A stretch of DNA of 55,663 nucleotides, filler included, from Jimgerdemannia flammicorona (GCA_003990765.1; 3 parts of 3 records of this genome joined end to end with filler, not necessarily neighbours in it), one strand, 5' to 3'; positions 19,004 through 55,528 are shown, counted from the whole stretch's first letter. The notes: a model not told the origin generated them from the letters alone. Program-made: numbers and translations.

Positions 19004-19516
19004 TTAGTCACCATTCCAATGTACATAAGTATCTTCAGCATCAATATCTGAACTGGTATCTTTATTTGGATCAGAGTCACTCCATTCAACAGGTTCTTCT
19101 TCTTCCTCTGAGAACAGAATCTCAATATGATTGATGATACTCTAGTAGATAGCAGGATTCATGTTTTATATATTATTCACAGAGAATTGTATCTATATCA
19201 GGACTGGGATATTTTATTTATAAATAGTGTACAATCTGTTTACAGCAGTGGTGTTTTTCTGGGTAAGGCCAGTATAGTTTCTAATGTAGGTTAGGTCTGC
19301 TATTGGGAGGTTCTACAACTATTCTCCAATTGCATAGTAGGTCTATAGCTGATAGACTTGCAGTAAATGTCTGACCAGGGTGAGGTTCTCTTAATGGGTC
19401 TGAATTTGCTGAAGAGGATTTCTATTGGCTTGTCAGAATTATGACAGGAGAACTGGGAGTAATTGGAATGAACTTATAACAAGAGTCTAGAGGTACTGAT
19501 CAATTGTCTAGTTCAT
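19004..19516 (-). pseudogene. Family A accessory ORF between integrase and 3' LTR (170 aa, unknown function)
   Basis: ATG 19516 to TAA 19004 in one frame. All internal stops revert to Gln/Arg codons: …QVYQLQTYYAIGEQLQNL…TAVNRLYTIYKQNIPVL…SEEEEEPVEWSDSD…. Confidence 0.65.
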
Positions 19517-20850
19517 GGTAAGAGAGGTATATCTTGAGATAGTTGATGTATACTGGTGTTCTGAGAGTTCATCTATCTATATTTCTTAAATAGATACTAG
19601 TTCCTCTGATATTGTGTACAAGATAAGATTCTTCTCATTTGGGCTCCAGTTTGGTAGCAAAATTTATCTCAATCATACTTCTTCAGATTAGTACTTGATC
19701 TCCAATATTGATCTTCTGATCCTTCTACTTCTAGTTATAGTACTTCTTTTATCTTTCTTAGACTTTGATAATCTGAGCTTGGGCTTAATTATATAACTAT
19801 TCTGCCTTCTTAAGGAGGTCTCCAAGATTCTCATGGTCAGCAGTTCTGGTTTCCTTGACAAATATTATTTTGAATAGCTTTTGTTTAGTAGAGATAGCAG
19901 GAGTATTCCAAATTTTCCATAGAATCTCAGGTAAGCAGAGGTTCCAGTTAGTAGGATTGACTCAGACAAGTTCTTTCTTGATAGTCTGATTCATTCTTTC
20001 TGTTATACCATTGGTCTGTAGGTAGTATAATGTGGTCTATTTGAGGTAGATCTTATGAATTTAGGTATAACTTATAATTATATTATTGATGAATTCTGTG
20101 CCTCAGTTAGAGATAAGTTCTTCTGGATGTCTATATCTGAGTATAAGTTCATGAAGAAGGTCTACAATGGTCAGGGTATCTGTGATTTCCATTGGGAAAG
20201 CCTTGGACCACTTGGTCAGATATTCTACAAATATAAGAATATATATATTTCTTCTTAGTATAACTGATAGGAGTCTAATTATATCTACTCTCCATCTCTG
20301 AAAGATGTTATCTGATAATATGATTAGTTATAGTAGTGCTTGGTAGTTCTTCCTTCCTTAGTACTTTTGGCAGGTATTATATTTCTTAAGTATGTCTCAG
20401 ACTTGAGTTCTGAGATTGGGCTAATATTGGTATATTGTTTATAGCTTTTCTTCTATATTTGCCTGTCCTTGATGAGCTTTCTGATATTCTTTTTGGATGT
20501 GTCTTGATGGTTAGAGGAGCTTTCTTTAGAGTGTAATTCCTCAGTACATCCTTCTTCTGGTTTATTGGGGTTGGTGGAAAAGTATATCAACATTGTTGTG
20601 AGCTTTCTCTGTCTTGTAAATAATGGTGATTTTGTAATCCTGAAGAATAAGGATCCAATAGACTAGAATTCTAGTAGATTTCTTATAGTTGAATAGTGTA
20701 ACAGTGACTCCAGAATGATGACATCAGCACAGGAGACAGCCTTTCCTTGCAAGCTATCAGATTGGAGCACAAGAAGATCATATGATATATGAGATGAGTA
20801 ATGATGACCAACTGTGAGTCACTGTGACCACAGTATAGTATCTTGAGGAA

Positions 20851-20858
20851 TATAAAAG
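20851..20858 (+). promoter_or_regulatory. TATA-like box upstream of the LTR-internal ORF
   Basis: TATAAAAG 83 nt before ATG 20934, conserved in all three B LTR copies. Confidence 0.4.
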
Positions 20859-20933
20859 AAGGATTAAGAAACTGCAGTAGCAGCAATCAACAAGACCAAT
20901 CCCAAAATAGCCCAAAGACTTATTACAAATAAA

Positions 20934-21797
20934 ATGTCTACTGCTCACCAAACCTCAAGGTCAAGGAACCACCAAGGCACCTCAGTCGAAGAAAGGATGT
21001 TCCAAGACATCAGAAGAGCTATGAGAACCTGCTCAAGAAGGACTCCTAGTATCAACCTGGGTACTGGTGACTCTTATCATTATATCCTCTACCACCATGA
21101 AATAGAAACAAGGATCACTATTGCTACCGAATGCCTCCAAATATGGCAGGAGTACGAAATAGGAAACCTTCTCCACCAGGAGTTTCTATAAGCCAGTACT
21201 CAAGAGCTACAAGATGTCATCCCCATAGATATATATGAAATGAGGATAGCTAAGAAGATCCATCAGATCTTTAAGCATATACCATAGTTGATCCCCAACT
21301 TGAAGTATGTTAGAGTCTTAGATTTTAGAGACCTGTCATCCTACCATATCAATGCACTAGAAGCCAGAGTGGCTACAGAAGCCCAGTCCACTATCACCCT
21401 CAATAGTGATGAAGTAGAAGACTTCTGGCACCCCATCCTCCAAGACAACCCAGACCAATTCCTGTAAGGATTGATCTCAGTATTCCAAGGCCCAAGCATC
21501 CAGGTTAGACCTCCCCAAGACCCCATATTTGTTTCTTATTTTGTAGAAGAGAACTTCATAGATTGGAGAGCCCCTGATTTCCCTGCCGCTGAATGTGATG
21601 ACATCATTGGTGATGATGTCATCCTGCATGACTTTGATATATGTGAGACATATGACTTGCATGAGATACCTGAAGCATGTAAAGTACATGAAACATGTGA
21701 CCTACATGATGAATTCATGGACCTCATCTCCTTTGAAGATATCCTGACCTCTGATGATGAGGATGAAGCCCCCATAGTCTTGAACATTCTGCTCTAA
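20934..21797 (+). pseudogene. Family B LTR-internal accessory ORF (287 aa)
   Basis: 864 nt in one frame with 3 internal stops of CAA/TGG-decay type. ORF-track pieces 20934-21191 and 21471-21797 are in the same frame. Confidence 0.75.
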
Positions 21798-21820
21798 GTC
21801 CTTTATTATACTGGATAATG

Positions 21821-21930
21821 CCAGCACCAGTATTCTGAGGTGATGCAGAATTGTTCCAGCATTGGTATTTGATATAACACTAAATAATACTAGTACTGAT
21901 ATTTTGATGTAATATCAAATTATACCAGCA
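21821..21930 (+). repeat. Three tandem ~35-bp repeats in B U3 (also about 29088-29198)
   Basis: CCAGCACCAGTATTCTGAGGTGATGCAGAATTGTT / CCAGCATTGGTATTTGATATAACACTAAATAATA / CTAGTACTGATATTTTGATGTAATATCAAATTATA. Confidence 0.7.
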
Positions 21931-22035
21931 TCCTGAACCTATACAACTATTAGTACCAACCCTGAAACTTAGTAGTTTTAGTTATTGGAATTTATATTTA
22001 GCTTTATATCTTAGCAATCATTAAATTATATTTTG

Positions 22036-22068
22036 TATAAATACCCTTCTTATTTCCTCTGAAATAAA
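22036..22068 (+). promoter_or_regulatory. Probable main LTR TATA box and poly(A) signal of family B
   Basis: TATAAATA 22036-22043 (same TATAAATACCC context as family C at 43225-43232) and AATAAA 22063-22068. Confidence 0.5.
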
Positions 22069-22304
22069 GTTAGTCTTCTCAGTACAATATATACACTTCC
22101 TTACAAGTAATCTAAGAGATAACAAGACAGTTAAAGATAAGAAGTTTGAGGACTATAGGACCTTGAGAAGGCACTCCAATAAGAACTTGCTTATAACAAA
22201 CTTGAGTTAGTATAAGAGATATACCTTGAAGAGAATCTGACATATTTGAAGGACTCAGCAACCACCACATGACAACTTAGTGCCCATTGGCTGGTGATTC
22301 AAGA

Positions 22305-25300
22305 TGAATCTCTCACTTTCAAGCTGAAAAATGAACAACCCCCACAACAACTACCCTGACTACAAGAGTCACCCCTGCAAGAATTCAAGATAAGATGGAA
22401 ATGCATCTCCCCACATTCTATGGATATACTACTGAAGAGTCAATCCTGACCTTCATTGAAGACTTTGAACAATTCGCTGCTATATGAGCTCTTGGTGTGG
22501 ATGCTCAATTGGCCCTTCTACCAGTCAGCCTCAGAGGATCTGCCAGAGACAAGTTCAATGTAGCCACCATTGCTGATGCTGGTACAGCCAAACTTATCAA
22601 CATGAAGGCCTTCCTCAGAACAATATATTATACTAAAGAGATCAAGCAAGCTCTCAAGGATCAACTCAATACTATCTGCCAGAGACTTAGTGAAGATCCC
22701 AACTCATTCTATATCTGAATCTGCCACCAGATTGTCTTGGCTGGCTATGATGACCACCTCAAGGAACAAATAGCAGATTCAACCTTCCTCAAAGGAGTTC
22801 ACTCTGAAATTGTCTTAGCAATCTGGTCTACCCCAGCTGCACTGACCCTTGATTAGAAAGTGGTCTTTGTACAGAGATATTAGACTGCCAGACACCCTGC
22901 TAAACACTCAATAGAGAAAATAACTGGCATCAAGATGGAGCCATCAAAGCTAACTAGTATCATACCTACCACAGTTGTAAACAGACAACCAACCCCACCT
23001 ACCCCTAAGACAGCCAAAGCTGGCCTAGTGGAGGAACTTGTCAAGTCATTTGCTGAGATGACTATATACCTTGGTGATGTTGTTAAAGAAGTCCAAAGCA
23101 CCAACAGGAGACTAGTGCAGAGATTTGCAGCTGCTACAGAAGAATGCAATATCACATGCTTCAGATATAGAGAAGAAGGCCACTATGCAAAGAATTATAT
23201 AACTGAAACAAGATGCAAAGCCCAACTAAACAATGCTAGCAGAACCAGAGAATAAACCAATGCAGTAGTTAATGAGGAGATTGGTGACACTGATGATGAA
23301 GAATACTATGAGGAGCTTGAATTCTACCCTGCTACTGAAGGTACCAGAACCTGGTCCAAGCCCTATGACAAGAAGAGCAACAACAAGCCAGTTGGAAGAC
23401 CAAAGAAGACCCCAGCTGTCACTATTCAAAGCAAGACTCAACCCAAGGAGATTGATCAAGATATGGAGTTAGATGAAGCTGCCCACCAAATCATTAAAGG
23501 CACTACTCCAGTCTCAGGAGAAAGTGAAAGCAAGAAGGAACAGAAGCTGCACAAGATCAAGATCCACCAGTATGATATCTACAAAGACCTCAAGGAACAG
23601 AAGGTCAATACTATCTTTGGATAGCTAGCTGAAGTCTCTGCCTTCAGACAGCAGTTGAGAGTAGGACTTGCAACTACTGCTAAGAATCAAGAGTATAAGA
23701 TTGTAGAAGCTCACAATGCACAGGAAGAATTCGAGAACTCAGGTGAAGAATCTGAAGACCAGTGCAAGATATCAGCCTATACTCCATATCAGATCAAAGA
23801 CTGTATCTTTGATGCTATCATTGATACTGATGCTGGAGGATGCCTCATGAGCAAGAAGGCAATTGACCGCCTAGGCTGGGACATTGAAGAGTCCACCAAG
23901 ATGGCCTATGTCACAGCAGATGGTACATGAGCTACCCCCCTTGGCAAAATCCAAGAAGTCCCCATCAAGATAGGAGAAGCTACCATTCTAGTATATATGA
24001 TTGTCACAAGTGCTACCAACTATGATATCCTCATTGGCAACCAATGACTTCACAAGGCCAAGGCCATCATTGACCTCAATACTCAGAAGATGCAGATCAA
24101 CTATAGAGAAAGAAAGGTACAAGTCTTTATCAATGTCTACAAAGGAGTTCTACCAGACATGGAGGAAGGAGATGAAGAGGACACAGAGGTCTTCATGCAC
24201 TTGGTGAACAAGAATAAGAACAAGAACAAGAATAAGACACCCAAGCTCACAGATGAGCAGTGGTACAACAAGATTATCAATGGCTATGCCCCTCAAGGAA
24301 GATGCCCCCATGGTACTAGGATGTACTGCTCTGAACACCTGAATGACTGCTGGTCCTGTATCAGTGAAGTCAGAAAAATCTGCCAACAGAAACATGAGTG
24401 AGAATTCACCAAAGCAAAAAGGAAAGCCAAAGAAGATGACCAGCTCCCAGAGCTTCAAGCTGACAGTGATGATGAGGAGGAATAAGAATCAGACATCACT
24501 CTCAAGGTCAAGAAGTTTCACCCTGAAGCCAAGATCCCAGAATACAAGACTGAAGGAGCCATAGGAATAGATCTTGCCAACATTCAAGATACTACTCTCA
24601 AACCACAGACCACTACCCTACTTGGCACTGGAATTGGAGTCAAGTTGCCAGAGAACTATGCCAGAATTATCAAGACTAGGAGCAGTCTGGCCAAAAGCAA
24701 AATCTCAGTTGAAGGAGGAGTAATTGACTCTGATTACACTGGCAAGATCTTCCTCATAGTCAGAAATCACAACCACACCACCCCCTTTGAAGTCAAGAAG
24801 CATGATAGGATTGGTCAGATGCTGATCCACGAAATCAAGAAGCTCAAGATCATAGAAGTCATCAAACTCATCAAGACCAAGAGAGGAGAACAAGGCTTTG
24901 GATCTACTGAAAGAGGAGCCTATGCTACCACAAGAAAGACAAGAACCAGAACAAGCACACCTATACTATTGGAGAAAACTTTCCCCTGGAGGAACAACTT
25001 CTCAAGATTCTGTATCAGAATGAGGAAGTACTTGCTATAGACTTCAGGGATATCCACAATCAAGAACCCAAGTACTACTATGAAGTTGACACTGGTGATA
25101 CCAAGCCCATCTACCAGAAAGCCAGACCCATACCACCTGTCTACAGAGAATGGCTGCAAGCAGAACTCAAGGAAATGGAAGAAGCTAGAATCATCAAGCA
25201 AGCTATCAGCCTCTGGGCCTCACTCATTGTCCTTGCTCTGAAGAAAGAAAGCAAGTCTGGAGAGTTTGTACCAAGACTCTGTATTGACTACAGGAAGCTC

Positions 25301-27600
25301 AATGCCATTACAAAGAAGGATAGGCAGCCCTTGCCAAATATTCAAAAAATCCTTACCACTCTTAAAAGTAAAGCCAAATACTACACCACCTTGGATCTGT
25401 TCTCAGGCTTCCATCAGATTGATCTCACTCAAGATGCCAGTGAGAAATTAGCCTTCATCACACCTGATACCACCTATATCTACCTGCAAATACTATTTGG
25501 AATGTGCAATGCCCCAGCAAGTTTTCAGCGAATGATGAACAAAGTCTTCAGCAATGAGATTGGAAAATAGCTCTTTGTCTATGTTGATGATGTGATCATC
25601 TTCAGCAACACTGCACAGGAACATGTCAATCACATACAGCTAGTCCTCAAGAAGCTCAAGGAGAATGGCCTCTACATCAAGCCCAAGAAATGCAAGTTTG
25701 CAGCTCAAGAAATTGCCTACCTAGGACACCTCATCAATCAGACCAGAATCCACATAGACCCTATGAAGATTGAGACTATTGCAGCCTATCCAAGACCCAG
25801 AACAACTACAGAAGTCCATGCCTTCCTTGGACTGGCCAGCTACTACAGAAGATTCATCAAAGGATATTCCAACATTGCAACACCTATCTACGAGCTACTG
25901 AAGAAGGAAACAAAATTCGAATAGACCAAAGAGCACCAAGAAATCTTCAATGAACTCGAGACCAGATTGACCCAAGCACCTATCCTCAGAAGACCAGACT
26001 GGAACCTAGAATTCATCCTGCAGACAGATGCAAGTGCTATAGAACTTGGAGCAGTCCTAGCTCAGAAGAAAGATGGACATGAATATGTCATCTCCTATAC
26101 AAGCCAAGGTATCTGTGGAGTAGAACAGAACTACAAGTCATGCAAGCTTGAATACTTAGCAGTAGTTTGGGCAGTAGACAAGTTCCACTACTACCTAGCT
26201 AGAAAACACTTCACCATTCAAACAGATCACTCTGCTCTTGCCTGGTTATTCTACACTCTGAACCCCAAAGGAATATATACCAGATAGATCTATAGACTGC
26301 AAGTGTATGACTATACTGTCAAGCACCACTCAGGAAAGACCAATATCAATGCTGATGCACTCTCAAGGACACTCTGAAATACCCTCATCAAGACCATTCA
26401 ACATGAATAAGGAGCTATACTATGGATTAATCAGCTATCTTGGGCAGCAGAAGATATCCAACCACCTCGAACCTTGGACAATTACTATTATCAACTGGAC
26501 TTGGAAACAGTTTGAATTAGACAACACTATACTCAGAAAAGGAGGAAAGCTAGTAATACCCAAACATAAGAAGTATCAAGTAATAAAGGAAGTATATGAA
26601 CAAGGATACTTAGGAGGAACCAACACATATGACAAAGTAAGAAGAACTATATGGTGGCCCAAGATAGAAGAAGACCTGTGCCAATTTGTCAAAGGGTGTG
26701 ACAAGTGTTAAAAACAGAAACAAGATCAGTAAGACCAGGCACCCAGGTTATCAAGAATTGAGCCTATCCCCTTCCACCATATTATAATGAATATCATTGG
26801 ACCACTACCAGTAATACTATCAGGAAACTACTATATTATAGTTATTGTAGATCTCATCACCAAATGGATAGATGCAGGAGCATTACAAGAAGCCAATGCC
26901 CTCTCTATAGCTGACTTCCTGCACCGAGAAATCATCTGCTGCTACAAGACACCAAAGCAAATCACAACAGACTGCAGCACAAAATTTGTCAATGGATTCC
27001 ATGAGATAATATATCAGAAATACAAGATCCAGCACATCAAGACCACTACGTACCACCCTCAAGGAAATAGACAGACAGAGAGAACCAATAAGACCCTCAA
27101 GAACATCCTAGTGAAGATCTCAGAGACATATGAGAATTGGGATAACTATTTACCAACCACCCTCTCTGTCCTATGAGATATACAGTCACAGAGCATACAC
27201 TTTACCCCAAGAGAGCTGCTCTTCAGAGAAGAAGATTCTAATAGAACCTCAGCTACAAATCTAGACCTAACTTGGAGATAGGTTGATGCAGAAATCCAGA
27301 GACTATACCAAATCAGGAAGAAGGCTGAAGATTACATCACCAAGTCACAAGTATTGATAAGAAAGAATGTGGAAAAGAATCACAAGGCCCTAGAATCCAT
27401 CTGAATCAGAGAAAAAGTTCTACTGTATTGAAATATGGTAGAAGCCTCATGGTTGCGAAAACTGGAACCCAAATAGGAAGGACCCTTCTATGTGTAAGAT
27501 ATCAAGGGAACTACCTTCTGGCTTAGAAAAATCTCAGGGACCATACTGCCTACCACAGTACATAGGAACAGACTCAAGAAGTACTATGAACCTATATAAG
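22305..27600 (+). pseudogene. Family B gag-pol: Gag(CCHC)-PR-GRCPH module-dUTPase-RT-RNaseH-IN
   Basis: LPTFYG, CFR(Y)REEGHYAKN(Y), AIIDT(D)AGG, RLCIDYRKLN, YVDD at about 25579, LQTDAS, IIGPLP, YHPQGN-QTERTN, KLEPK-EGPF. Confidence 0.93.
24500..24912 (+). pseudogene. dut: dUTPase domain of family B (between PR and RT)
   Basis: GIDLA, TRSSLAKSKISVEGGVIDSDYTGKI, DRIGQML, RGEQGFGST. Confidence 0.93.
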
Positions 27601-27963
27601 AGAAGCAAAACATGATGACCACCTGCGAGGTTCTAGTCCACAAATCATAACAGCATGTCCTGTGATCAGCAGGCTATCTGTCTGGACCATTCTCTAAGGG
27701 ATACAGTACTGGCAACTACTCATCCATGAGACTTTCAAAGTCAGAGGAGTTCGAACCATCAACTGATTGGTCAAGATCAGAATCAGGCCCTTGCTCTATA
27801 TGAAGAGAGTGACCCTTCACCATCTTGCCAAAATATAAAGAGAAGATGTCAGCCTATAAATACGACTTTTCGACCCCTTGCCAGAGGTTATGGGATCAGC
27901 AAATTTTTCAAGACTAGACCAATGAATAAGGATGCTCAGAAAGATCCTTATTCAGGAGGAAGA

Positions 27964-29542
27964 TGTAACAGTGACCCCAGAATGATGACATCAGCACAGA
28001 AGACAGCCTTTCCTTACAAGCCACCAGATTGGAGCACAAGAAGATCATATGGCATGTGAGATGAGCAATGATGACCAACTGTAAGTCACTGTGACCATAG
28101 TATGGTATCTTGAGGAATATAAAAGAAGGATTAAGGAACTGCAGTAATAGCAACCAACAAGACCAATCCCAAAATAGCCCAAAGACTTATCACAAACAAA
28201 ATATCTGCTGCTTGCTAAATCTCAAGGTCAAGGAACCACCAAGGTATCTCAGTTGAAGAAAGGATGTTCCAAGACATCAGAAGAGCTATGAGGACCCACT
28301 CAAGAAGGACTCCTAGTGTCAACCTGGGTACTAGTGACCCTTATCATTATATCCTCTATCACCATGAAATGGAAACAAGGATTACTATTGCTACTGAATG
28401 CCTCCAAATGTAGCAGGAGTATGAAATAAGAAACCTCCTCTACCAGGAGTTTCTATAAGCCAGTACTCAAGAGCTATAAGATGTCATCTCTATGGATATA
28501 CATGAAATGAGGATAGCTAAGAAGATCCATCAGATCTTCAGGCAGGCACCATGGTTGATTCCCAACTTAGAGTATGTTAGAGTCTTAGATTTCAGAGATC
28601 TATCATCCTGCCATATCAATATACTAGAAGCCAGGGTGGCTACAGAAGCCCAGTCTACTATCACTCTCAATAGTGATGAAGTAGAAGACTTGTGGCACCC
28701 CATCCTTCAAGACAACCCAGACCAATTTCTGCAAGGATTGATCTCAGTATTCCAAGGCCCAAGTATCCAGGTTAGATCTCTCCAAGACTCCATATTTGTT
28801 TCTTATTTTGTGGAAGAGAACCTCATAGATTGGAGAGCCCCTGATTTCCCTGCCGCTGAATGTGATGACATCATCAGCAATGATATCATCCCACATGACT
28901 TTGACATATGCGAGATGTGCAACTTGTATGAGATACCTGAAGCATGCAAAGTATGTGAAATGTGTGACCTACATGATGAATTCACAGACCTCATCTTCTT
29001 CAAAGATATCCTGACCTCTAATGATGAGAATGAAGCCCCCATGGTCTTGAACATTCTGCTCTAAGTCTCTTATTATACTGGATAATGTCAGCACTAGTAT
29101 TCTGAGGTGACACAGAATTGTTCCAGTACTGATATTTTGATGTAATATTAAATAATACCAGCACTGGTATTTTGATGTGATACCAAATTATACCAGCATC
29201 CTGAATCTGTACAACCATCAGTACTAACCCTGGAACTTAGTAGTTTTAGTTATTGGAATTTATATTTAGCTTTATATCTTAGCAACCATTAAATTATATT
29301 TTATATAAATATCTCACTTATTTCCTCTGAAATAAAGTCAGTCTTCTTAGTACAATATATACACTTTCTTACAAGTAATCTAAGAGATAACAAGATAGTT
29401 AAAGATTAGAAGTTTGAGGACTATAAGACCTTGGGAAGGTACTCTAACAAGAACTTACTTATAACAAACTTGAGTTAGTCTAAGAGATACACCTTGAAGA
29501 GAATCTGATATATTTGAAGGACTCAGCAACTACTATGTGACA
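27964..29542 (+). repeat. Family B 3' LTR (1579 bp)
   Basis: TGTAACAG…GTGACA, direct repeat of 20697-22274. Confidence 0.95.
28201..29064 (+). pseudogene. Second copy of the family B LTR-internal ORF
   Basis: 864 nt, ATG mutated to ATA. The 190-aa C-terminal part is still open (28492-29064). Confidence 0.75.
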
Positions 29543-35312: not shown

Positions 35313-35329
35313 TCCCAATTGAGCCCCCA
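35313..35329 (-). promoter_or_regulatory. Family A primer binding site, tRNA-Pro type
   Basis: TGGGGGCTCAATTGGGA just inside the LTR end. TGGGGGCTC is the classic tRNA-Pro PBS start. Confidence 0.75.
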
Positions 35330-42744: not shown

Positions 42745-44809
42745 TGTAAGAGGGTTGCTTTTTAGGGTAACTGTTATGTAGTTCTGGAAGGGTTTTCTGG
42801 AAGTTCTAGATGTTCTGAAAGACCGTTTTCTTATGGTCAAGATCAATTTCATATAGAGTACGTCCTCTACGCTTATTGATTTCAAGTTCAGGTTGATGTC
42901 TTAATCAAAGTCCTTTTTTGGACTAGTTCTGGATGTTCAGGATTTTCATATTTCAGGAAGTTTAAGAAACTAAGACCAGCTTAGTTGAATTGGTATATCG
43001 CTGCAGACAATACCCAATTAGGAAATTTCGTGATGGGGTTAGAAGTGGGATCTAATGAAGAGTGGATTTACTTAAGAGTGGTTTGTGGATTATTAAATAG
43101 GTTTAATTGCTATTTATAATATTGCTATACTAAGAGTAGTTGTGTGAAGGGATATTGTGGGGAAGTGCTCAGGAGTTGTGTTCAGATTGTTTAAGTCTGA
43201 GATTCTGAGGTCTGGGGGAGGGGGTATTTATACTAGTGAGGGGCTATCTGGACTATGCTAAATATAGATATAGTACTTAGTGCCTTGCTGAGTCAGAATG
43301 TAGTCATATAGTACAAGTGTGATCTGACATGTCAAGAGATCATTTGGCTGCTGTATCAGTTCACAGTTATGTCATATAAGGCTAATCTAACTATACTATA
43401 ACTGCTAGGCTATTTATAGATTTAGATGCTATCTGGGTAGTCTTCAATGATATCACTATCGATTGCATTATCTCTGATAAAGTAGTCATCTAGGAAGAGT
43501 GGTTCATGGATTACTTCTCCTTGTTTGCTGAGATAACAATATATTAGAACTTCATCACCATCTCACAGGATAGCATTGTCTGTCTCATATACTGGATAAG
43601 GTGTTGGTGGGTAAAGGAGTAGTATATCGTCTTTGTTTTCATCAGTTTCGCTATCTGCATACCTTCTATAAGTTATAGCACTATGAGTTGCAGGGTTGTA
43701 GTAAGCTGACAGCTATGGTTCGTATCACTCATACTCAGATAGTAGAGTGGTTGGTTCAATCTCAAGGGTTGTCTAAAGGTACAGATTGTGTTCTCTGGTC
43801 TCTTCATTATAGTTGAAGTAATCAGGAGTAAATGTGGGTTGGTATTCATGCCAATGGTCATTGTCCCAATAGGTCTCATATGCTGTTATAAATTGTTGTA
43901 AGTTCATTGACAAGGTTGGTGGTGTGATCAGGGTTGGCAGAGATCCTTAGCTTGAGGTCATGTTGGCATCAGAGGAATCATTGTCTTCTGCTTTATCTTC
44001 ATCAAATTGGATTATGTCATAGACATCCTTCATAGCATATCTGACTTGAGGCATTTGCAGGATATGGTCATCAGAGTGTGAGAAGGTTCTGTCTGTGGTC
44101 TGGACATATTCTAGGTACTTGTGGTTGAGTTCTTATATCATGTCATCGATTTGGCCATAGGATAGGGTAGCAACCATTTCACTGGTAGTAACTCAGAGGT
44201 AGAGAATAAAGGTGCTGTACTCATAAAAGAGTTCTTTGTGTTTGCAGGCAATGAGCTTCCGGTGTTGAGACATCTGGGTAATATCTGTATCATAGTGGTG
44301 TTCAACCATATCTTTCAGGAGGTGGCTGATCTAGTAGTAGCTTGAGATTTGTCCAATTCAGTGGGCCTTGTTAAGCATGTTCAGGATGTTCCATTGAGCT
44401 TCCACAAAGTAGAGGGATGCTAGGCTATGGATATTTATGAGGGGCAGAGGGGGTGTGGCTTGGTTGATAATGGTATTCCAAATATCAGTACAGATGTGGT
44501 TGTAGATCTTGATGGTCATATTTGTATATGTTCAGAAGTTGTAGTTATTGTTTGTTTTGGTTCTCTGTTTTGATGTGTCTTGATGCTTGGTATATATACA
44601 TTTGGTCATGATTGATAAGATTCTGTTTGTATGAATCTTGTGTTCCATGACTTCATGTTGACTCAGCTTTGTGCACTGTGACTTTAGTTTGACTCAGCTT
44701 CATAATTAAGCAGATGATTTCCAGATTTGTTCAGAGGTCGTGTGTGATTTTGGTGGCTTATTCAGAGGGTGATGTGTGATTTCAGTAGCTTGGAGGTTGT
44801 ATACTTACA
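42745..44809 (-). repeat. Family C copy 2 3' LTR (2065 bp)
   Basis: Direct repeat of 51330-53177. TATAAATA at 43225-43232 (minus strand). Confidence 0.95.
43422..44519 (-). pseudogene. Family C LTR-internal (U3) accessory ORF (365 aa)
   Basis: 1098 nt from ATG to TAA. Consensus of three LTR copies is open apart from one shared TGA (likely CGA): MTTKIYNHICADIWNAIVNQ…QISSYYQIGHLLED…KLIACKHRELFYKYSTFIPCL…DSDIIEDYPDSI. Confidence 0.75.
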
Positions 44810-45249
44810 ACTCTCCCCTTCTTAGCTTTCGATATCCTCATCAGGGCCTTCTAATTTTGTTCTAGTGTTGTTACACCGATTGAGAGATCAAAAGTCTAGT
44901 GAAGTCCATTTTTTCAGAAAGTGGCATGCTCATAGTACAGTTGCCTAACATATTGGATTCACATGTTAAAGGGTCATGTATTCAATACTGTGTGCTGGAA
45001 GTGATTCTGACATCATTCACTGCTGGAGAATTTCCTCTAAGAAATCTTCTTAAATATCTATGCCTTGTTTTCCACCAGTAGTATGGAGAGAATAGGCTTG
45101 CTTTCAGTTTTGCTATTTTTCTAGAGGGTTGGTATTCTTGTCTTATTTTGTTGAGTTCTTGATTTTGTTTGTGATAATTATAATATTCAGGAGGGTGATA
45201 TATAGTATGTACTGATAGGTATCAGAATATTCAGATTTCAGTTGTTCAA

Positions 45250-45410
45250 GAAATCATATTCCTGAACTAAGTTAGTAGCATTCTGGAGGTTGGTCTTGGG
45301 TTCCCATGTGGCATCATGGATCATGTAATCTTTTCATTTGACAAGGTACTCAGGGTAGTTCTTGTTTCCACATTTGTTGAGGATTTGTTCAACTTCGTAC
45401 TCTTCTTGGT
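45250..45410 (-). pseudogene. Chromodomain at integrase C-terminus (copy 2)
   Basis: EEYEVEQILNK…EYLVK(W)KDY…DATWEPKTNLQNA. Confidence 0.9.
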
Positions 45411-48400
45411 CATTAATTATGATAGATACAGGTGGTTTGATGGTCTAGTTGGGGAATAGCTTGTTGTCATTGTCATTGTATCACTTGAGACATTGAACAT
45501 TAAAGACTGGGTAGACCTTAATGGTATCTGGTAACACCAATTTGTAGGAAGTAGGAGAGACTTGTGCGATGACTTTAAATAGTCCAATGAACTTGCTGTT
45601 CAGCTTTGTAGATGGTCTGTACTTGAGGTTATCAACTCAGTATCCTCAGATGTCCAGTAGAACTTTTTCTCCAATATCAAAGGTTTCTTCTTGGTGGTGT
45701 TGGTTAATATACTGTAACTGTTGTTCTTGAGCTTGCAATAAATTCTCAATTGCAATCTGGCTCAGATTGTGCATTTGGAGCAGGCATTCTTCAACAGCTT
45801 CAACTGTAGAGAGTTCTTCAGTAGTTCAGATGAGTGTTAAAGGGGTGTTTGGGTTTTGTTCTGTATTAGCGAAGAATGGAGTCATTCTAAGAGAGGCTTT
45901 CTTGCTGTTGTTGTAAGCAAACTCAACTGCAGTGAGGTGTTCATGCCAATTATCTTGTCTGTAGAAGATATAGTTTCTTAGCATTTGTTCCAGAGTTTGG
46001 TTCATTCTTTTGGTTTGGCCATCCATTTCTGAGTGAAAGGCTGTGAATAGTGTAAGTTTCATTCCAAGGTATGCATGGAGGGCTTTCCAAAAATGGCTGG
46101 TGAATTTTGGGTCTCAGTCACTAACAATGATCTTCAGAAGACCATAATAGCAGAAATATTGTCAAACAAGAGTGTGGCTATGTCTAGTGCTGTTGCAGTG
46201 GTGGTGGTTGGTACAAAGTGGGCTTGTTTACTGAGATAGTCTACAAAGACAATAATTGCATCTTTCCCATTCTTGGTTTGGGATAGTTATATAATGAAGT
46301 CCATAGAGATTTGTTCCCAATTAGCGGATGGTACTGGGATAGGGTGGAGTAGGCCAGGTTTTGCTAGTGTTGAGGACTTGTTTCATTGGTAGGCATCACA
46401 GGAAGTGATGTAGGTCTTGAGCTAATCTGCCATGTGGGGCCAATAGAAGTTTTGGGAAATAACTTCATAGTATTTGTCAAATCCTAAATGTCCAGCTGTA
46501 GGGGCATCATGCCATTCAAATAGGATAGTTCTTTGGAGGTCTCAGTTGTTTGGGATATATAGTCTGTTCTTGTAGTAGATAGTATTGTCTTTGAGTTGAT
46601 ATTAATAGTACTGAGTATACTTGTCAGCATCATTACTATTCAGAATTTCTCGGAGTGCTTGAGCTTCTTTATTATCAGCACATGCTGTGATAATTTGTTC
46701 CATGATAGAGTTTGTAACCAAGGTGAGAGTTTGGATAACTTCTTCAATGGGTGGTCTGGAGATTGTATCAGTAACAATGTTTTCCTTGCCAGAGTGATAC
46801 TGGATTTTATTGTCAAAGTTGGTGAGGACTTTCATCCATCTGGCTTGCTTTCGAGAAAGGATAGCCTGGGTCTTGATGTTGACTAATGACTTGTGGTCAG
46901 TCAATACAGTGAAGTGTACTCTTTCTAGATATAGTTGCCATTTGATCAGAGTATCTATGATGGCTAGCATTTCCTTCTTATGAGTTACATAGTTGATTTC
47001 GACATCATTGAACTTGTGGGAATAATAGGTGACTGGGTGTCCTTCTTGCATAAGCACTGCTCCAAGAGCTAGGTCAGAGGCATCAGTAGTGACTTCATAT
47101 AGTAGGGCAGAATTTGCTGCTTAAAGTACTGGAGTGATTATCAAGGCATCCTTTAGTACTTGAAAGGCAGTATCTTGCTTGGGTCTCCAATTTACAAGAT
47201 TGTTGAAGTCTTTCTCTTATTTTGTGGTCCAGGGTTATTCTTCTTTCTTGCTATGCTTGGTTATTTGGGTAAGAGCAGTAGCGATTTTGGCAAAGTTGGT
47301 AACAAATTGCCTGTAATAGTTTGCTAATCCCAGAAATGACTAGAGGTCTTTCAGCTTCTTGGATCTAGGCCAATCTTTGATTGCAGAGATTTTGCTGGGG
47401 TCCACTTTGATTCTATTCAGTGTAATAATGTGTCCAAGGAATTGAATTTCTTTCAGGAGGAATTCACACTTGCTGAGTTTTGCAAAGAGTTGGTTTTCTC
47501 GGAGTTTCAGTAGTACTAGTTCAAGGTGTTCCAGATGTTCCTCCAGGGTTTTACTGAAGACTAGAATGTTGTCAATATAGACAACAATGAATTTGTCCAG
47601 ATATGGGTGCAGGATAGTATTCATTAGTATCTGAAAGGTTGCAGGAGCATTAGTTAAGCCAAAGGGCATAACCAGGAACTCGAAGTGTCCATAGTGGGTT
47701 TGGAAGGCTGTCTTGTAGATGTCTTTTTCTTTCATAGCAATTTGCCAGTAACTATTTCACAGGTCAAAGGAGCTCATAAATTGTGGGTTGGTAAGCCTAT
47801 CGAATATTTCATCAATCCTGGGTAGTGGGCAACAGTTCTTAATGGTCTGTTCATTAAGGTCTTGGTAATCAATGTACATTCACAGGTCTCCTCCTTTCTT
47901 GACAACAAATAGGATCAGTGCACCATAGGGTAATACATTCGGTCTGATGAATCCTTGTTCTAGGAGCTCATCAATTTCTTTCTTAAGTGCATTGATTTCT
48001 CTCAGAGACATATGGTAGATTGACTTGAAGGCTGGCTTGGCATCTGGGATGGTCTTGATTGCATGGTCTACTGCTCATTTAGGAGGTAGGTCTTTCAGAA
48101 GCTTCTTGGGAAATATGTCTCAGAATTTCTGGAGTAGTGGTCTGACATGGCTCTCAACTTTGGAAAAGTCTTCTTCAGAGTTCTCAGGTTTTCCTTTGGA
48201 TGGGCAGATGGAGATGGCAAAAAGAGGGCATTTCTTGGCCAATTTCTTGAGTTGTAGCTTGTTTATGTGGGTGATCTTTGGTCCAGGATCACTAGAACTA
48301 AGTGGGTTCTTTTCACCTTGCAGTTTGAAGTTATGGCATCCTTTCTTGATGGTCAGAAAATGGTTTATCCAATCGATCATAGGGTTCTCTTATTTCAACC

Positions 48401-48894
48401 ATGGGGTTCCAAGAATGATCTTGTTGTCAGGAAGTGGTACAATTTGGAGGGTAACATGTACTTGGTAGTCACCAATTTGGAAGGGCAGATTGCAGACTTC
48501 CTTGCTAATGACAAGGAGGTTCCATTAGCTGTGGCAACTGCTTAAGTTTGTTGTACTGGAGAGGTGAAGACCTTAAGTCTGTTGGCTGTTTCTTCATTGA
48601 TAAAGTTGCCTGAGGCACTACTGTCTATCATAATCTTAACAGGTGCTCAGTTGACAAAAGCTTGAAGTGTAAGCAGTTTGTCTGATCCAATGGTGGTGAT
48701 TTTGGTTGTAGGGGCTTTCCTTTTATTGGTTCTTCTTTGAGCCAGTTCATTGACACAAGAGAAGCAATTATCAATCATTTGTGAATTGTACATTCTAATG
48801 TCATGGGGGCATCAGCCACTTGGTACATATCCATCTTCAATTTTCTTGTAGAATTGTTCTTCTTTGTTCATGGTAGGTTGGGCTGGGGCTTTGT

Positions 48895-49310
48895 TTGATG
48901 AGCCAAATCCTTTGGATCATTGGATGGTGGGCAGTAGTTCAGAGACTTCTTTGACTGTTAGGGTCAACTCAATTTTTTTGAATAGAATCTGGGCAATGCA
49001 GAAACCAATGGAGATCTTGAAGGGTATCCAACTATAGTTTCAGATGAGGACAATAATTTTGCCTGTATAATCCTCATCAATGACTCCTCCTTCTACTGAG
49101 AGTCCTTTCAATGCTAGGCTGCTGCAATAGCATATTCTTCCAACATATCCTTCAGGAATTTGGATACTGATTCCTGTATAGACTTACTTAACTTCTCAGT
49201 TGGAAACTATAGCTTCTTTGGCTGCATACAGGTCATATACAGCTGCTTTTTGACTTCCTTTGGTTGGGGCCTTAGCAGTTTGTCTTAACTTGATAAAGTC
49301 TAATGTTCTG
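48895..49310 (-). pseudogene. dut: dUTPase domain of family C copy 2
   Basis: YDLYAA, SSLALKGLSVEGGVIDEDYTGKI, IAQILF, GSKGFGSS. Confidence 0.92.
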
Positions 49311-51329
49311 GTAGTCAGGTTATTGAGGTGGTGCAGAGTGGTAACAGTTGCTTATGTTACTGTTCAGGGTTTTTAGTTGGGGCAGGCACTGGCCATATGT
49401 CCTGTCTTTCGGCAATAGAAGCATGCTCCACTTCTTCGAAGTTCATTCCTTTCACCTTCTGTGAGTTTCTTGAAGGTACTTGGCTGAGTGGGTTCATGAT
49501 TTCTGGGTGTCCATGAGGTGGATGTAGAGGGAGCTCAGGATGCTTCATGCTTGGGTTCTTCTTTCTTGGTCTAAGTTTTTTCCTTATTGTTGAATTGTCT
49601 TTGGGGCAGAATTGGTCCAGCTGTTAGAATTCACTTGACCATAGTCTTGATTCTTACTAGGCACTATTGTTGGTGATCACAACCAACTGGGTGGCCTTGT
49701 TCTCAGATTTTTCTAGTAAGCCATTCAGGTAGTGTATCAAATAAATGGTCTGCTCTTGTACTATTTCATGCTTCATCATTGATAATATATCCTAGGCCAA
49801 TAGTGTTCAGGAGTGACTCAAGTTTTGTACAGAAGGTTTCGAATTCTTCCTTGCCATGTACATCAAATTTGAGGTTGTGGAGTTTTACTCAAGATTCAGC
49901 AATCATGGTTTTGCTGCAGTATTGAGCAATTATGAGTTGTTTGAGTCCAGGGGCTGCAGGATGGGCTCCATATCCTGGGGCATTGTTTGCTACATTCTGA
50001 GCAACTACTGTAGGTCAGGTGTCCCATGTGAAGGGTTTTTCAGGAAGGGTTCACCACCATTCTTCGGTGAGTCCTCAGAAGAATGTAACAACTCAGCAGA
50101 CATAGGCTGTAGTGGTAGAAAAGAGTTGTTCCAGAGTGTGGTCTTGATTGTTTGTCAGAAGGCAGTCAGCAACTCGCTCATTTGTCCATTGATTGGCCTC
50201 AAAGTTGGTGTCAACTACACTAATGAAGCTTTGGACTTCTTGTGCAGTACCATTGAAGATAGGTAGGCTCAGATTTTTGGTAGGTCAGATCTGTTCAGCT
50301 AAGGCAGTAATGGTTGCTACCATTATTGCTACCTGGGCTATGAGGTCTAGAATTACCATGTTGTTTACTGGAGGTAGTTGGACTACTGGTAGTGGTGTTA
50401 TTGGTACTACTTGAGGTACTGGTGCAGAGTGTGAGGGTGTTCTTTGAGTCTGTATAAGTTGCTGGAGTAGTAGTTGTGGGTCTGGAGTAAGGGCTCGATA
50501 GATAGCTGTTTGTTGCTGTGTAGGTATATTCTGTCCTGATGGAGGTGCTTCTCCTTCAGTAGTATATCTGGGATCAAATTTACTGAGATACTCCTCCTCC
50601 TCTTCAGTTTGGTCCCTGTGTAATTGGGTTTGCTCAGTATCAAAGTAGATGGAATCAGTTGTATATCTGATTTCAGATGAACTTAATTCAAAGTCAAGTT
50701 CAGGTTCAGTATTGGTTTCAGATTCAGATAGAGTTGTAGCTGGGCCTGCTTCTGGTTCAGGGTCAGGTAGTTGATGAAGAGTTTCTCTTGCTTCTTCTTT
50801 AAGAATATGGTGGGTCTTGCTATTCTGGAATTGATAGTATAATGCAGTCTTGGTCCTGGTATGGTGAAAGTCAGTAGAGTTGAGCCACTTAGCTACAGAG
50901 GCTTGGGCTTCATGAGGAACTAAGGCTAGAACCACTCCTGCTGGTTGTCCTAGGTCGCTCAGATTTGTGGAGCTGACAAAACTCTTATTGAGAAGAGTAA
51001 AGAAGGCTTCTATAAGACCTTCTTTGTCTTGACTTGCTGGGTGTAGTGCAAGGAGTTCGGTGAATAGAGATTTGCCTATTTGCTGGTTTAGCTGGAGTAC
51101 TTCTTTCTTTGAATGAAGTTTATCTCACTTGTTGCAGGTGTGGAGGTTAAATTGTCCTTATACATATGTTAGGTTCAATTCTCTCCAGATTATCAGATGG
51201 TTCAGGATAAATTCCAGTTTAGAGGTTGGGCTTTATACCAACTTATAGGAATTCTCAGAAGGGTTTGTAGCAGAATGAGGAAGCATCTTGAAGTGGAATT
51301 GGATTGTAAACTGCTGCTATGTACCAAGT

Positions 51330-53177
51330 TGTAAGAGGGTTGCTTTTTAGGATAACTATTACATAGTTCTGGAAGATCATTTTCTTATAGTTAAAATCAA
51401 TTTCGTATAGAGTATATTCTCTACACTTATTGATTTCAAGTTCAGGTTGATGTCTTAACCAAAGTCCTTTTTCGGACTAGTTCTGGATGTTCAGGATTTC
51501 CATATTTCAGAAAGTTCAAGAAACTAAGACCAGCTTAGTTGAATTGACATATCGCTGCAGACAATACCCAATTAGGGAATTTCATAATGAGGTTAGGAGT
51601 GGGACCTAATGGGGAGTAGATTTACTTAAGAGTGGTTTGTGGGTTATTAAATAGGTTTATTTGCTATTCATGATATTACTATACTAGGAGTAGTTGTGTG
51701 AAGGGATATTGTGGAGAAGTGCTCAGAAGTTGTGTTTGAATTATTTAAGTCTGAAATTCTGAGGTCTAGGGGAGGGGGTATTTATACTAGTGAGGGGCTA
51801 TCTGGATAGTCTTCGATGACATCACTATCAATTGCATCATCTCTGATGAAGTAGTCATCTAGGAAGAGTGGTTCGCAGATTACTTCTCCTTGTTCGCTGA
51901 GGTAATAATATATTGGAACTTCATCACCATCCAACAGGATAGCATTGTCTGTCTCATATGCTGGATAAGGTGTTGGTGGGTAAAGGAGTGGTACATCATC
52001 TTTGCTTTTATCGGTTTTGCTATTGCATACCTTCTATAAGTTACAGCTATGAGTCATGAGGTTGTAGTAAGCTGGCGGCTGTGGTTCATGTTGCTCATAC
52101 TCAGGTGGTGGAGTGATTGGTTCGATCTTGAGAGTTATCTAAAGGTACAGGTTGTGTTCTCCAGTCTCTTCATTATAGTTGAAGTACATAATTGGGAGTG
52201 AATGCAGGTTGGTATTCATACCAATGGTCATTGTCCCAATAGGTCTCATATGCTATTATAAATTGTTGTAAGTTCATCAGCAAGGTTGGCAGTATTATCA
52301 GGGTTGGCAGAGATCCTTGGCTTGAGGTCATGTTGGTGTCAGAGAGATCATTGTCTTCTGCTTCATCTTCATCAAATTGGATTATGTCATAGACATCCTT
52401 CATAGCATATCTGACTTGAGATATTTGCAGGATATAGTCATCAGGGTGTGGAAAGGTTCTGTCTGTGGTCTGGATGTATTCTAGGTACTTGTGGTTAAGT
52501 TCTTGTATTATGTTGTCAATTTGGCCATAGGATAGGGTAGTAACCATTTTGCTGGTAGTAACTCAGAGGCAGGGAATAAAGGTGCTGTACTTATAAAAGA
52601 GTTCTCTGTATTTGTAGGCAATGAGCTTCTGGTGTTGAGACATCTGGATAATGTCTATATTATGGTAGTGTTCGACTATGTCTTCCAGGAGGTGGCTGAT
52701 CTTATAGTAGCTTGAGATTTGTCTGATTCTGTGGACCTCATTAAGCATGTTCAGGGTGTTCCATTGAGCTTCTATAAAGTAGAGGGGTGCTAGGCTATGG
52801 ATATTCATAAGGGGCAGAGGGGGTGTGGCTCAGTTGATAATGGTATTCCAAATGTCAGCGCAAATGTAGTTGTAGATCTCAGTGATCATATTTGTATATG
52901 TTCAGAAGTTATGGTTGTTGTTTGTTTTGATTCTCTGTTTTGATGTATCATGATGCTTGGTATATACATTCGGTCCTGATTGGTAAGATTCTGTTTGTAT
53001 AAATCTTGTATTCTGTGACTTTGTGTTGACTCAGCTTTGTGTACTATAACTTCAGTTTGACTCAGCTTCATGATTGAGCAGATGATTTCCAGATTTGTTC
53101 GGAGGTTGCATGTGATTTTGGTGGCTTGTTCAGAGGGTGACATGTGATTTCAGTGGCTTGGAGGTTGTGTGCTTACA
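51330..53177 (-). repeat. Family C copy 2 5' LTR (1848 bp, two internal deletions relative to the 3' LTR)
   Basis: Deletions near 51375 and near 51805. Carries the accessory ORF from ATG 52889 to about 51800. Confidence 0.95.
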
Positions 53178-53794
53178 TGGCCAAATCGAAAGAATGAACC
53201 AAACTCTGGAATAAATACTAAGGGACTATATGTCCTACAGATAAGATGATTAGTATGAACACCTCACTGCAGTCAAGTTTGCTTACAATAACAGTAAGCA
53301 AGTCTCTCTTGGAATGACTCCATTCTTTGCCAATACTGGACAAATCTCAAACACCCCTCTGACACTCATCCAAACTACTGATGAATCCTCCACAGTCAAA
53401 GCTGTTGAAGAATTCCTGCTCTGAATACATAATCTAAACCAGATTGCAATTGAGAATTTATCACAAGCTCAAGAACAACAGTTACAGTATATTAACCAAT
53501 ACCACCAAGAAGAAACCTTTGATATTGGAGAAAAAGTTCTACTAGACATCTGAGGATATCAAGTTGATAACCTGAAGCACAGACCATCTACAAAGCTGAA
53601 CAGCAAGTTTATTAGACCATTTGAAATCATTGCACAAGTCTCTCCAACCTCCTACAAATTGATGCTACCAGACACTATTAAGGTTCACTCAGTCTTTAAT
53701 GTCCAATGTCTCAAGTGATACAATGAGAATGATGATGAGCTATTCCTAAACCAAACCACCAAACCACCTACACCTGTCATTATTAATGACCAAG

Positions 53795-53950
53795 AAGAAT
53801 ATGAAGTTGAACAAATCCTCAACAAATGTGGCCTCAAGAATCACTCTGAGTATCTTGTCAAATGGAAAGGTTATCCAATCCATGATGCAATCTGGGAACC
53901 CAAGACCAATCTCCAGAATACTACTGACTTAGTTCAGGAATATGATTCTT
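53795..53950 (+). pseudogene. Chromodomain at integrase C-terminus (copy 1)
   Basis: EEYEVEQILNKCGLKNHSEYLVKWKGYPIHDAIWEPKTNLQN. Confidence 0.92.
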
Positions 53951-54392
53951 TGAATAACTAAAACCAAATACTCCACACCTATCAGTATATACTATATATT
54001 ACCCTTCCAAACATTATAATTATCATGAACAAAATCAAGAACTCAGTAAGTCAAGACAAAAGAATACCAACCCTCTGGAAAAAACAGCAAAACTGAAAGC
54101 AAGCCTATTCTCTCTGTACCACTGGTGGGAATCGAGGCATAGATATTTAAGAAGATTCCTTAGAGGAAATTCTCCAGCAGTGAATAACATCAGAATCACT
54201 TCTGGCATATAGCATTGAACACATGACCCTTTAATATATGAATCCAATGCATTAGGCAACTGTACTATGAGTATGCCACTTTCTGAGAAAAATAGACTTT
54301 ACCAGACTTTTGACCTCCCAAATGGTGTAATAATACTAGAACAAAATTAGAAAGCCCCCAACAAGGATGTCAAAAGCTAAGAAGGGGAGAGT

Positions 54393-55528
54393 TATAAGTG
54401 CACAACCTCCAAGCCACAGAAATCACACATCACCCTCTGAACAAGTCACCGAAATCATATGTGACCTCCAAACAAATCTGGAAATCACCTGCTTAATCAT
54501 AAAGCTGAGTCAAACTGAAGTCACAGCATACAAAGCTAAGTTAACATGAAGTCATGGAATATAAGATTTACACAAACAGAATCTTACCAATCAGGACCAA
54601 AGGTATATATATCAAGCACTGAGATATATTGAAATAGAGAACCAAAACAAACAATAACCACAACTTCTGAATATATACAAATATAACTACCAAGATCTAC
54701 AACCATATCTGTGCTGACATTTGGAATGCCATTGTCAACCAAGTCACACCCCCTCTACCACTCATGAATATCCATAGCTTAGCACCTCTCTACTTTGTGG
54801 AAGTCTGATGGAATGCTCTGAACATGCTTAGTGAGACCCACCGAATTGGATAAATCTCAAGCTACTATCAGATCGGCTGTCTCCTAAAAGATATGGTCAA
54901 ACACTACCATGATACAGATATCACTCAGATGTCTCAATACCAGAAACTCATTGCCTGTAAACATCAAGAACTCTTCTACAAGTATAGCACTGTTATTTCC
55001 TGCCTCTGAGTTACTACCACTAAAATGGTTGCTACTCTGTCCTATAGCCAAATTAATGACATAATACAAGAACTCAACCACAAGTATCTCGAGTATATTG
55101 AGACCACAGACAGAATCTTCCCACACCCCAATGACCATATCCTGCAAATGTCTCAAGTTGGATATATCATAAAGGATGTCTACAATATAATCCGATTTAA
55201 TAAAGATAAAGTAGAAGACAATGATCTCTCTGGTACCAATATGACCTCAAGCCAAGGATCTCTGCCAACCCTGATCATACTACCAACCTTACCAATGAAC
55301 TTACAACAGTTCATAACCACATATGAGACTTATTAGGATAATGACCACTGGTATGAATACCAACCCACATTCATTCCTGATTACTTCAACTACAATAAAG
55401 AGACTAGAGAACATAATCTGTACCTCCAGACAACCCTCAAGATTGAACCAACTACTCCACCACCTGAGTATGAGCAACATGAACCACAGTCACTAGCTTA
55501 TTACAACCTCGTGACTCATAGTGCTGTA
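54393..55528 (+). repeat. Family C copy 1 3' LTR (partial), with third copy of the accessory ORF from 54683
   Basis: T(A)TAAGTGCACAACC after the PPT. Matches 44809 and 53177 on the reverse complement. Confidence 0.93.

Follow-up and report, generated by a model that had tools for sequence, protein, structure and literature searches.

How a protein-coding gene comes to lie within a retrotransposon's long terminal repeat (LTR), and whether genes found at the same end of distant elements share one origin, are questions raised by a stretch of Jimgerdemannia flammicorona DNA (GCA_003990765.1; 55,663 nt including filler, hereafter the window) that holds a nest of Ty3/Gypsy elements. The anatomy of these elements was established by comparing the window with itself and by Pfam searches of reading frames in which stop codons were read as X. 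Two deeply diverged lineages, B and C, carry a conserved protein gene inside LTRs of 1.6 kb and 2.0 kb, and a third, A, carries one just outside its LTR; each of the three lineages thus has one extra gene of an undescribed family at its 3' end. To our knowledge, extra genes of LTR retrotransposons have come mainly from plants, nematodes and rotifers, few of them with a demonstrated function, and we know genes lying wholly inside an LTR as textbook examples only from retroviruses such as mouse mammary tumour virus (MMTV). An earlier reading of the same DNA, the original prediction, proposed that the three genes are one accessory protein family that was relocated into the LTR in two of the lineages.

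The A-type open reading frame (ORF) comprises 171 codons with 12 internal stops (19004..19516, minus strand) and lies between the integrase and the polypurine tract (PPT) of element A1. From its stop codon it is 45 nt to a purine tract with an LTR start near 18962, and the same LTR start recurs at 36645. Element B is complete (20697..29542, plus strand), is flanked by the target-site duplication (TSD) ATAG at 20693-20696 and 29543-29546, and has its PPT at 27954-27963. The B-type ORF is found in both of its LTRs, which are 90.4% identical: in the 5' LTR (20697..22274, 1578 bp) as copy B1 (20934..21797, plus strand, LTR positions 238-1101; 287 codons, three internal stops), and in the 3' LTR (27964..29542, 1579 bp, directly preceded by the purine tract) as copy B2 (28201..29064, plus strand; four internal stops, last 194 codons open). 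Element C-inner is likewise complete (42745..53177, minus strand), with the TSD GGCCA at 42740-42744 and 53178-53182 and its PPT at 44811-44822. Comparison of its LTR pair gives a 3' LTR of 2065 bp (42745..44809) and a 5' LTR of 1848 bp (51330..53177) that has a deletion relative to the 3' LTR. The former holds copy C1 (43422..44519, minus strand, LTR positions 291-1388; 365 codons, nine internal stops) and the latter copy C2 (51800..52889, minus strand), which has two stops in its first 235 codons and then a frameshift. C-inner is inserted in an older copy, C-outer (37186..42744 and 53178-55528, plus strand), which is 87% and 85% identical to C-inner in the self-comparison and whose 3' LTR contains copy C3 (54683..55528, plus strand; 282 codons, four stops), cut off at 55528.

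The B and C ORFs therefore lie wholly within both LTRs of complete elements that have a PPT and TSDs. All three ORF types are in sense orientation, 3' of the integrase and adjoining the PPT, the A-type ORF before it and the B- and C-type ORFs after it. The coordinates and frames given by the original prediction were right for all six copies (with A, C1 and C2 on the minus strand), and its placement of B and C inside the LTR and of A after the integrase is borne out by LTR pairs, PPTs, TSDs and nesting. The families also differ, as had been claimed, in TSD length (ATAG versus GGCCA), in the position of the dUTPase and in the chromodomain. The peptides that it quoted are composites of several copies in which stops had been replaced, whereas the actual frames carry internal stops.

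Since every copy in the window is broken, by 2 to 12 internal stops, one may ask whether these are genes at all or chance open frames and annotation noise in decayed LTRs. The sequencing runs speak on the same side, and against the reading preferred here: the 10 runs that match come from soil metagenomes or from a coded organism (shares 0.05-0.23), and no RNA run is listed among them. That the ORFs are chance frames is nevertheless very improbable, because open homologues of 172-342 aa at 41-79% identity occur elsewhere, because conserved blocks are seen in their alignment, and because insertions and deletions keep the frame inside the ORF and break it outside. All external proteins derive from JGI/IMG or ENA metagenome assemblies; two of them, P0012 and P0014, are encoded on contigs of 4,848 bp and 1,288 bp. 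The B query (the copy read with X at stops, searched against 5.8 billion proteins) returned five of 215 candidates at E <= 0.01, all of them open and 58-75% identical; one of these B-type proteins, P0003 (271 aa), begins at the same Met as the window B ORF. A HMMER search of the whole library (1.84 billion representatives) with the B profile found five clusters only, among them the diverged, open B-type proteins P0012 (342 aa), P0013 (200 aa) and P0011, so that intact B-type homologues span 41-79% identity and reach 342 aa. With the A query, one of 11 candidates was retained, P0014, which has 172 aa, is open, starts at the same Met and is 56-57% identical. The C query gave one of 305, P0009, a 247-aa fragment that is 60% identical over the C-terminal 69% only. 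When metagenome contigs were scanned with the B alignment, one of 107 pattern matches was confirmed, the locus L001, with an open B-type ORF of 291 aa in DNA of 50% GC (38% in the window); with the C alignment none of 594 was confirmed in metagenome contigs, and in viral contigs none of 145 (C alignment) or of 48 (B alignment). A profile built from the external B proteins scored 348-364 bits on two overlapping six-frame chunks that span B1, and in the B alignment, where conserved blocks are evident, the invariant block is formed by residues 143-209.

The pattern of length changes points the same way. Contigs from four runs (soil metagenome or coded) were aligned to the B 5' LTR at >= 80% likeness, and 12 of 28 indel rows were listed. 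Among these, the two indels inside the ORF measure 3 and 6 nt. Of the ten outside it, the six upstream measure 1, 1, 4, 4, 2 and 1 nt, and the four downstream 2, 1, 1 and 1 nt. Within the ORF's acidic linker there are also two replacements that are fully specified, with length changes of 57 and 45 nt. Fully specified length changes are thus in frame in 4/4 cases inside the ORF versus 0/10 outside, among the rows listed. The 21 listed base differences in the B ORF are spread over the three codon positions as 5, 8 and 8, a distribution that the window copy's own decay makes uninformative; at most of the listed differences the window reads T or A against C or G in the other copies, which fits decay of this B copy. 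The A, B and C ORFs are, judged by sequence conservation of this kind, genuine accessory protein genes. As a separate observation, the acidic linker (21545-21756) is hypervariable in length: it is almost devoid of contig cover and is bridged with 45-87 nt fewer or with replaced letters, and the window B copy has within it an extra insert rich in Cys, His and Asp relative to the external proteins.

The locus L001 bears directly on how such a gene could enter an LTR. At L001 (1252-1285) 3 nt separate the stop codon of the B-type ORF from a purine tract with an LTR start, and this LTR start shares its first 11 bases with that of A (window 18945-19006, minus strand). L001 is a B-type protein in an A-type slot, and the gene is thus found on both sides of the PPT. 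The claim that the gene was relocated into the LTR gains support from this arrangement, as the same type of gene now stands on either side of the tract, and a shift of the PPT alone would place it in U3. Such a shift would be a simple route by which retroelements bring genes into U3. The part of L001 upstream of the ORF (1-375) is non-coding, shows no frame for an integrase and is not similar to the window. A 28-nt direct repeat in L001 (170-197 and 1481-1508, 86% identical, 1,311 nt apart) flanks the ORF region, and the sequences around its two copies are unrelated to each other.

In lineages B and C the PPT lies upstream of the gene, which would make the gene part of U3 and have it copied into both LTRs; the last 480-680 nt of the B and C LTRs would then correspond to the "old" LTR. 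A gene borne in U3 would also be left behind in solo LTRs, and solo LTRs in such genomes may still be protein-coding. Unusually long LTRs are in this respect not necessarily pure regulatory DNA. The sequence signals in the LTRs are partly consistent with this arrangement. The B and C LTRs share a TATA-like 12-mer that is found downstream of the ORF, at 240 and 488 nt from the LTR end, and in B it is followed after 27 nt by AATAAA (LTR position 1367). The protein could be made from a subgenomic or spliced message, in the manner of retroviral accessory genes and of CERV in Cer1 (PMC10309623), from a TATA-like element about 80 nt before its ATG, or as a leader ORF. Two features tell against the U3 assignment: a TATA-like site also occurs about 80 nt upstream of the ATG of each ORF, and two TATAAA sites per LTR are close to chance expectation. 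The ORF could instead lie outside U3, either as the first cistron in a long R/U5 leader, transcription then starting at the TATA-like element upstream of the ORF, or as part of a self-contained LTR gene that has a promoter and poly(A) signal of its own and is active from solo LTRs as well. This alternative, which we hold to be a minority possibility of some weight, is in keeping with a TATAAA kept in both LTR copies of B (LTR position 155, 83 nt upstream of the ATG), with a TATATATA run about 80 nt before the C ATG, and with the position of the B AATAAA downstream of the ORF. Such motifs, however, are about as frequent as chance predicts for AT-rich DNA, gag-pol translation would be expected to suffer from a leader ORF of 0.9-1.1 kb before gag, and in both A and L001 the gene stands at the RNA's 3' end. 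A gene borne in U3 is the assignment that we tentatively prefer for B and C.

Whether A, B and C are one protein family, as the original prediction held, is a harder question. The B and C proteins are probably remote homologues. When a profile was built from the three diverged B proteins of external origin and run on 558 six-frame chunks, its top four non-B matches were all C ORF chunks (best E 0.054), and the best non-C match of the C profile was the B ORF (E 2.4, 1.9 bits); in these six-frame scans B and C are reciprocal best cross-family matches, in one register. The two can be aligned collinearly for about 85-110 residues (B profile 37-148 against C residues 25-133), the alignment having a single 3-residue gap and several anchors at identical spacing. 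For A, whose membership we consider evenly poised between homology and chance, residues 35-106 run in register with residues 40-102 of P0002 (B) and with residues 35-105 of C, the exception being the top hhalign match between A and B; A and C have YYxIG at almost the same place (residues 60-64 and 61-65, respectively). In a cross-family BLASTP comparison within a six-sequence database the best pairs were B2-C2 (E 0.009) and A-C2 (E 0.018).

Shuffled sequences were also scored, the counts being the shuffles that reach the observed score; the shuffling ignores local composition, and the values are therefore optimistic. With the full external B profile the counts were 0/500 for C2, 6/500 for C1 and 15/500 for C3, and 8/500 and 30/500 for the A-type window ORF and P0014. 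The diverged B profile gave 1/1000 for C2 and 0/1000 for C3 (P of about 0.001), 10/1000 for the window A and 27/1000 for P0014. The C profile gave 15/1000 for P0012, 60/1000 for the L001 ORF and 29/1000 for P0014, and the A profile 12-33/1000 for three B proteins and 53-64/1000 for the C copies. Structure prediction with AlphaFold2 (AF2) yielded seven helices in B (18-32, 47-83, 89-95, 100-113, 117-125, 128-132, 136-149) and seven in A (7-19, 34-69, 72-82, 86-101, 103-107, 113-118, 121-135), of matching order and length at an offset of about 13 residues, both in low-confidence models.

Several results weigh against a single family. The mean predicted local distance difference test (pLDDT) value of the AF2 models is 45.3 for B (9 sequences) and 47.2 for A (2 sequences). 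In hhalign the B-C alignment has the register of the original prediction and covers 76 columns at 16% identity, with P 0.05 and a probability of 1.1%; the A-B match (P 0.024) spans 22 columns in another register, and the A-C match (P 0.097) merely 19 columns around YYxIG, the probabilities across pairs being 1-2%. When the external-only B profile was run on 558 six-frame window chunks, the C copies reached E 0.32, 1.7 and 3.2, a chunk of the pol region (40201-41400, E 0.011) scored better than the C ORFs, and A remained at noise level. Among the shuffles, C1 was matched by 851/1000 with the diverged B profile and P0003 by 179/1000 with the C profile. The B profile retrieved no A-type or C-type protein among the 1.84 billion representatives. 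The shared motif on which the original prediction had relied is visible in the window copies, but it is loose and is not conserved in the external homologues: the G of YxIG gives way to R in B2, P0012 and P0013, C1 and C2 have S there, IPxL is replaced by IA in P0012 and P0013, by ATAL in P0014 and by IL or IS in C1 and C3, A lacks the A-x-[KR] element, and the invariant block of B lies outside the proposed motif.

These results may be taken to mean that three unrelated, lineage-specific orphan genes occupy the same permissive 3' slot by the PPT and have converged on a helical head and an acidic tail, the motif being a coincidence picked out by eye. With hhalign probabilities so low, with BLASTP E values of at least 0.009 even in a tiny database, with motif positions that vary and with the whole-library search empty across families, this explanation is a serious one, though we judge it clearly less probable than the homology of B and C; bdelloid LTR retrotransposons are also reported to capture varied extra ORFs (PMC5408684). 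What speaks against convergence is the mutual best matching of B and C in one register, the shuffle results for C2 and C3, the parallel helix patterns of A and B (in low-confidence models), and L001, which ties a B-type ORF to an A-type position and an A-like LTR end. The age of the lineages matters here as well. The RT-RNase H regions (RT, reverse transcriptase) are 41.6% (A-B), 37.5% (B-C) and 36.3% (A-C) identical, which by this measure of sequence makes the host elements deeply diverged lineages, and with RT just 36-42% identical one would in any case expect an accessory gene to be close to the limit of detection. An accessory protein near 16% identity fits common descent at such distances, and chance could also give it. 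The one-family claim, suggestive for B and C and weak for A, is unproven. The widest form of this claim, that a single ancient and probably fungal accessory gene of dUTPase-bearing Ty3/Gypsy elements outlasted the divergence of RT to 36-42% identity, crossed the PPT into U3 at least once, and so made every LTR, solo LTRs included, a gene for a trans-acting nuclear regulator with an undescribed fold, is rather doubtful. Were it true, it would be the LTR-retrotransposon counterpart of retroviral U3 and 3' accessory genes.

The proteins themselves have a consistent overall character. They comprise about 170-365 aa, with a helical N-terminal core of about 100 residues and a C-terminal half that is rich in aromatic residues and has a net charge of -3 to -10 per 30 residues. 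The acidic tails that had been described are present, by composition, in all three types, and the first 60 residues of B-type proteins are rich in Arg. All three also have a hydrophobic stretch followed by an acidic one (A about 128-145, B about 247-263 in P0003, C about 165-182), which we take to resemble acidic activation or SUMO-interaction motifs. No family was matched in Pfam at E <= 10 with five proteins, and a PDB profile search at E <= 10 likewise gave no match. The best score in the ESM Atlas was 0.83, below the level of a lead, with a pLDDT of 0.35 for the Atlas's own model, and Foldseek with the B model found nothing in the PDB at E <= 0.001 (best E 0.67), the model being too poor for this search to be meaningful. 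The original prediction had not recognised the domain, and it matched nothing in Pfam, in the PDB or by fold. A retroelement env was considered and rejected, in agreement with the original prediction, as there is no env domain among Pfam matches at E <= 10 and no long hydrophobic stretch in the intact homologues.

The reading that we prefer as a whole is that of a U3-borne, soluble, acidic-tailed, trans-acting nuclear regulator encoded at the 3' end of the RNA, and we hold it at about even odds. The protein would enter the nucleus and act in trans on its own element. Among possible roles, that of an activator of the LTR promoter, by analogy with Tas or Tax, appears the likeliest and is itself tentative; an RNA export factor in the manner of CERV or Rev is somewhat less likely, and an anti-silencing factor a little less likely again. 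These proposed functions are read from composition, namely the Arg-rich N-terminus in B and the acidic, aromatic tails, and are unproven. The protein could alternatively restrain the element or target host defence, as a copy-number control like Ty1 p22 or as an acidic decoy that mimics nucleic acid and engages a restriction factor. The highly acidic C-terminal half would suit a decoy, and from its position the gene would persist in solo LTRs; there is, however, no similarity to Gag, nor any other match in the window, and this role is improbable.

The proposed trans-acting regulator, encoded at the 3' end, invites comparison with several known systems. In MMTV, a vertebrate retrovirus, sag is an ORF in the U3 of the LTR that encodes a superantigen, and this product, Sag, is a transmembrane glycoprotein. 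The B and C genes resemble sag in being sense ORFs of about 0.9-1 kb that a long LTR contains in full, after the PPT, and that are present in both LTRs. Unlike Sag, their products are acidic, have no hydrophobic span and no Pfam match, and belong to chromovirus-like, dUTPase-bearing Ty3/Gypsy elements; by this analogy the arrangement would be that of MMTV sag and the protein of an unrelated kind. The Tas/Bel1 gene of foamy viruses and the Tax gene of human T-cell leukaemia virus (HTLV) are accessory genes of the 3' end, extending into U3 or bordering on it, and their products act on the virus's own LTR through acidic activation regions. The present genes share with them the 3'-end position at U3 and the acidic region, and no sequence or fold similarity to them was found. 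VANC of the VANDAL elements is an anti-silencing protein of a plant DNA transposon that binds specific DNA motifs and acts on the epigenetic state of its own family; it is comparable as a transposon-encoded accessory protein and differs in its origin from a DNA transposon of plants.

For the proposed function, the nearest documented case within Ty3/Gypsy is CERV of Caenorhabditis elegans Cer1, which according to PMC10309623 works in the nucleus on the RNA of its own element, is translated from a spliced mRNA and requires phosphorylation. By its description, CERV is likewise a new and lineage-specific accessory protein of Ty3/Gypsy. In plants, Retand TRP28 is an extra ORF of unknown function between pol and the 3' LTR for which a regulatory role is proposed (PMC11963269); the plant ORFs differ from the present genes in being antisense, in lying in a long internal region between pol and LTR, and in encoding a different domain. 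For fungal chromoviruses, the dUTPase is known from varying places in Pol, and a structure figure marks an extra ORF whose function is not known ("add. ORF"; Novikova et al. 2010, PMC2864245); this ORF might overlap with the present proteins, the passages on it giving neither its position nor its sequence. That ORF left aside, no LTR-embedded ORF in fungal Gypsy elements was found in full-text literature searches.

The order of domains further distinguishes the host elements. Element B has, by Pfam, gag, protease (PR), dUTPase, RT, RNase H and integrase (IN), with no chromodomain match, and C-inner has gag (CCHC), dUTPase, PR, RT, RNase H, IN, SH3 and chromodomain. The dUTPase of B follows PR (24525..24908, plus strand; PF00692, E 3e-26), that of C-inner precedes it (48896..49276, minus strand), and that of element A2 lies after PR and before RT (5254-5505, plus strand). 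The dUTPases of the three lineages are mutually 34-37% identical.

The three families are old and decayed. Among the differences between LTR mates, 146/151 in B and 194/201 in C-inner are transitions (96-97%), mostly at CpA/TpG, and the observed/expected ratio of CpG is 0.04-0.15 in all elements. This is a signature of decay like that of repeat-induced point mutation (RIP) or driven by methylation, by which the LTR pairs diverged after insertion, and such transition-biased decay with loss of CpG accounts for many TAA, TAG and TGA stops.

The window contains four runs of N, forming two blocks of N44 + TTAATTAATTAA + N44 at 18491-18590 and 37078-37177, which we take, from common practice, to be joining linkers with stops in all frames. 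Read in this way, they divide the window into three contigs (1-18490, 18591-37077 and 37178-55663), and the contig ends would explain the apparent truncation of a B-like LTR fragment (18592-18824) and of the C-outer 5' LTR (from 37186). Element A1 runs on the minus strand from 33957 to 29542, is interrupted by element B, and resumes from 20697 to about 18962. The first 135 nt or so of its 3' LTR (18825..18962, minus strand, preceded by a purine tract) form a direct repeat with 36511-36645 at 85%, and this LTR is cut off by the B-like fragment that adjoins the contig end. A2 (2896-7792, plus strand) is 80% identical to A1 and is uninterrupted across the site of the B insertion; no similarity was found between the region 5' of A2 and the 5' region of A1.

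Two further features of the window lie outside the elements discussed. The region 8000-18200 has 50-54% GC and a plus-strand GC skew of +0.38 to +0.52 (G about 37-44%, C about 11-16%), and it contains a reverse transcriptase of non-LTR type in two tandem copies (RVT_1, E 2e-15 and 8e-5) that are diverged (about 66% identical) and offset by about 4,900 nt. At the other end, an 11-nt tandem repeat of about 10 copies with 84% matches occupies 55557-55663, starting 28 nt past the C3 ORF.

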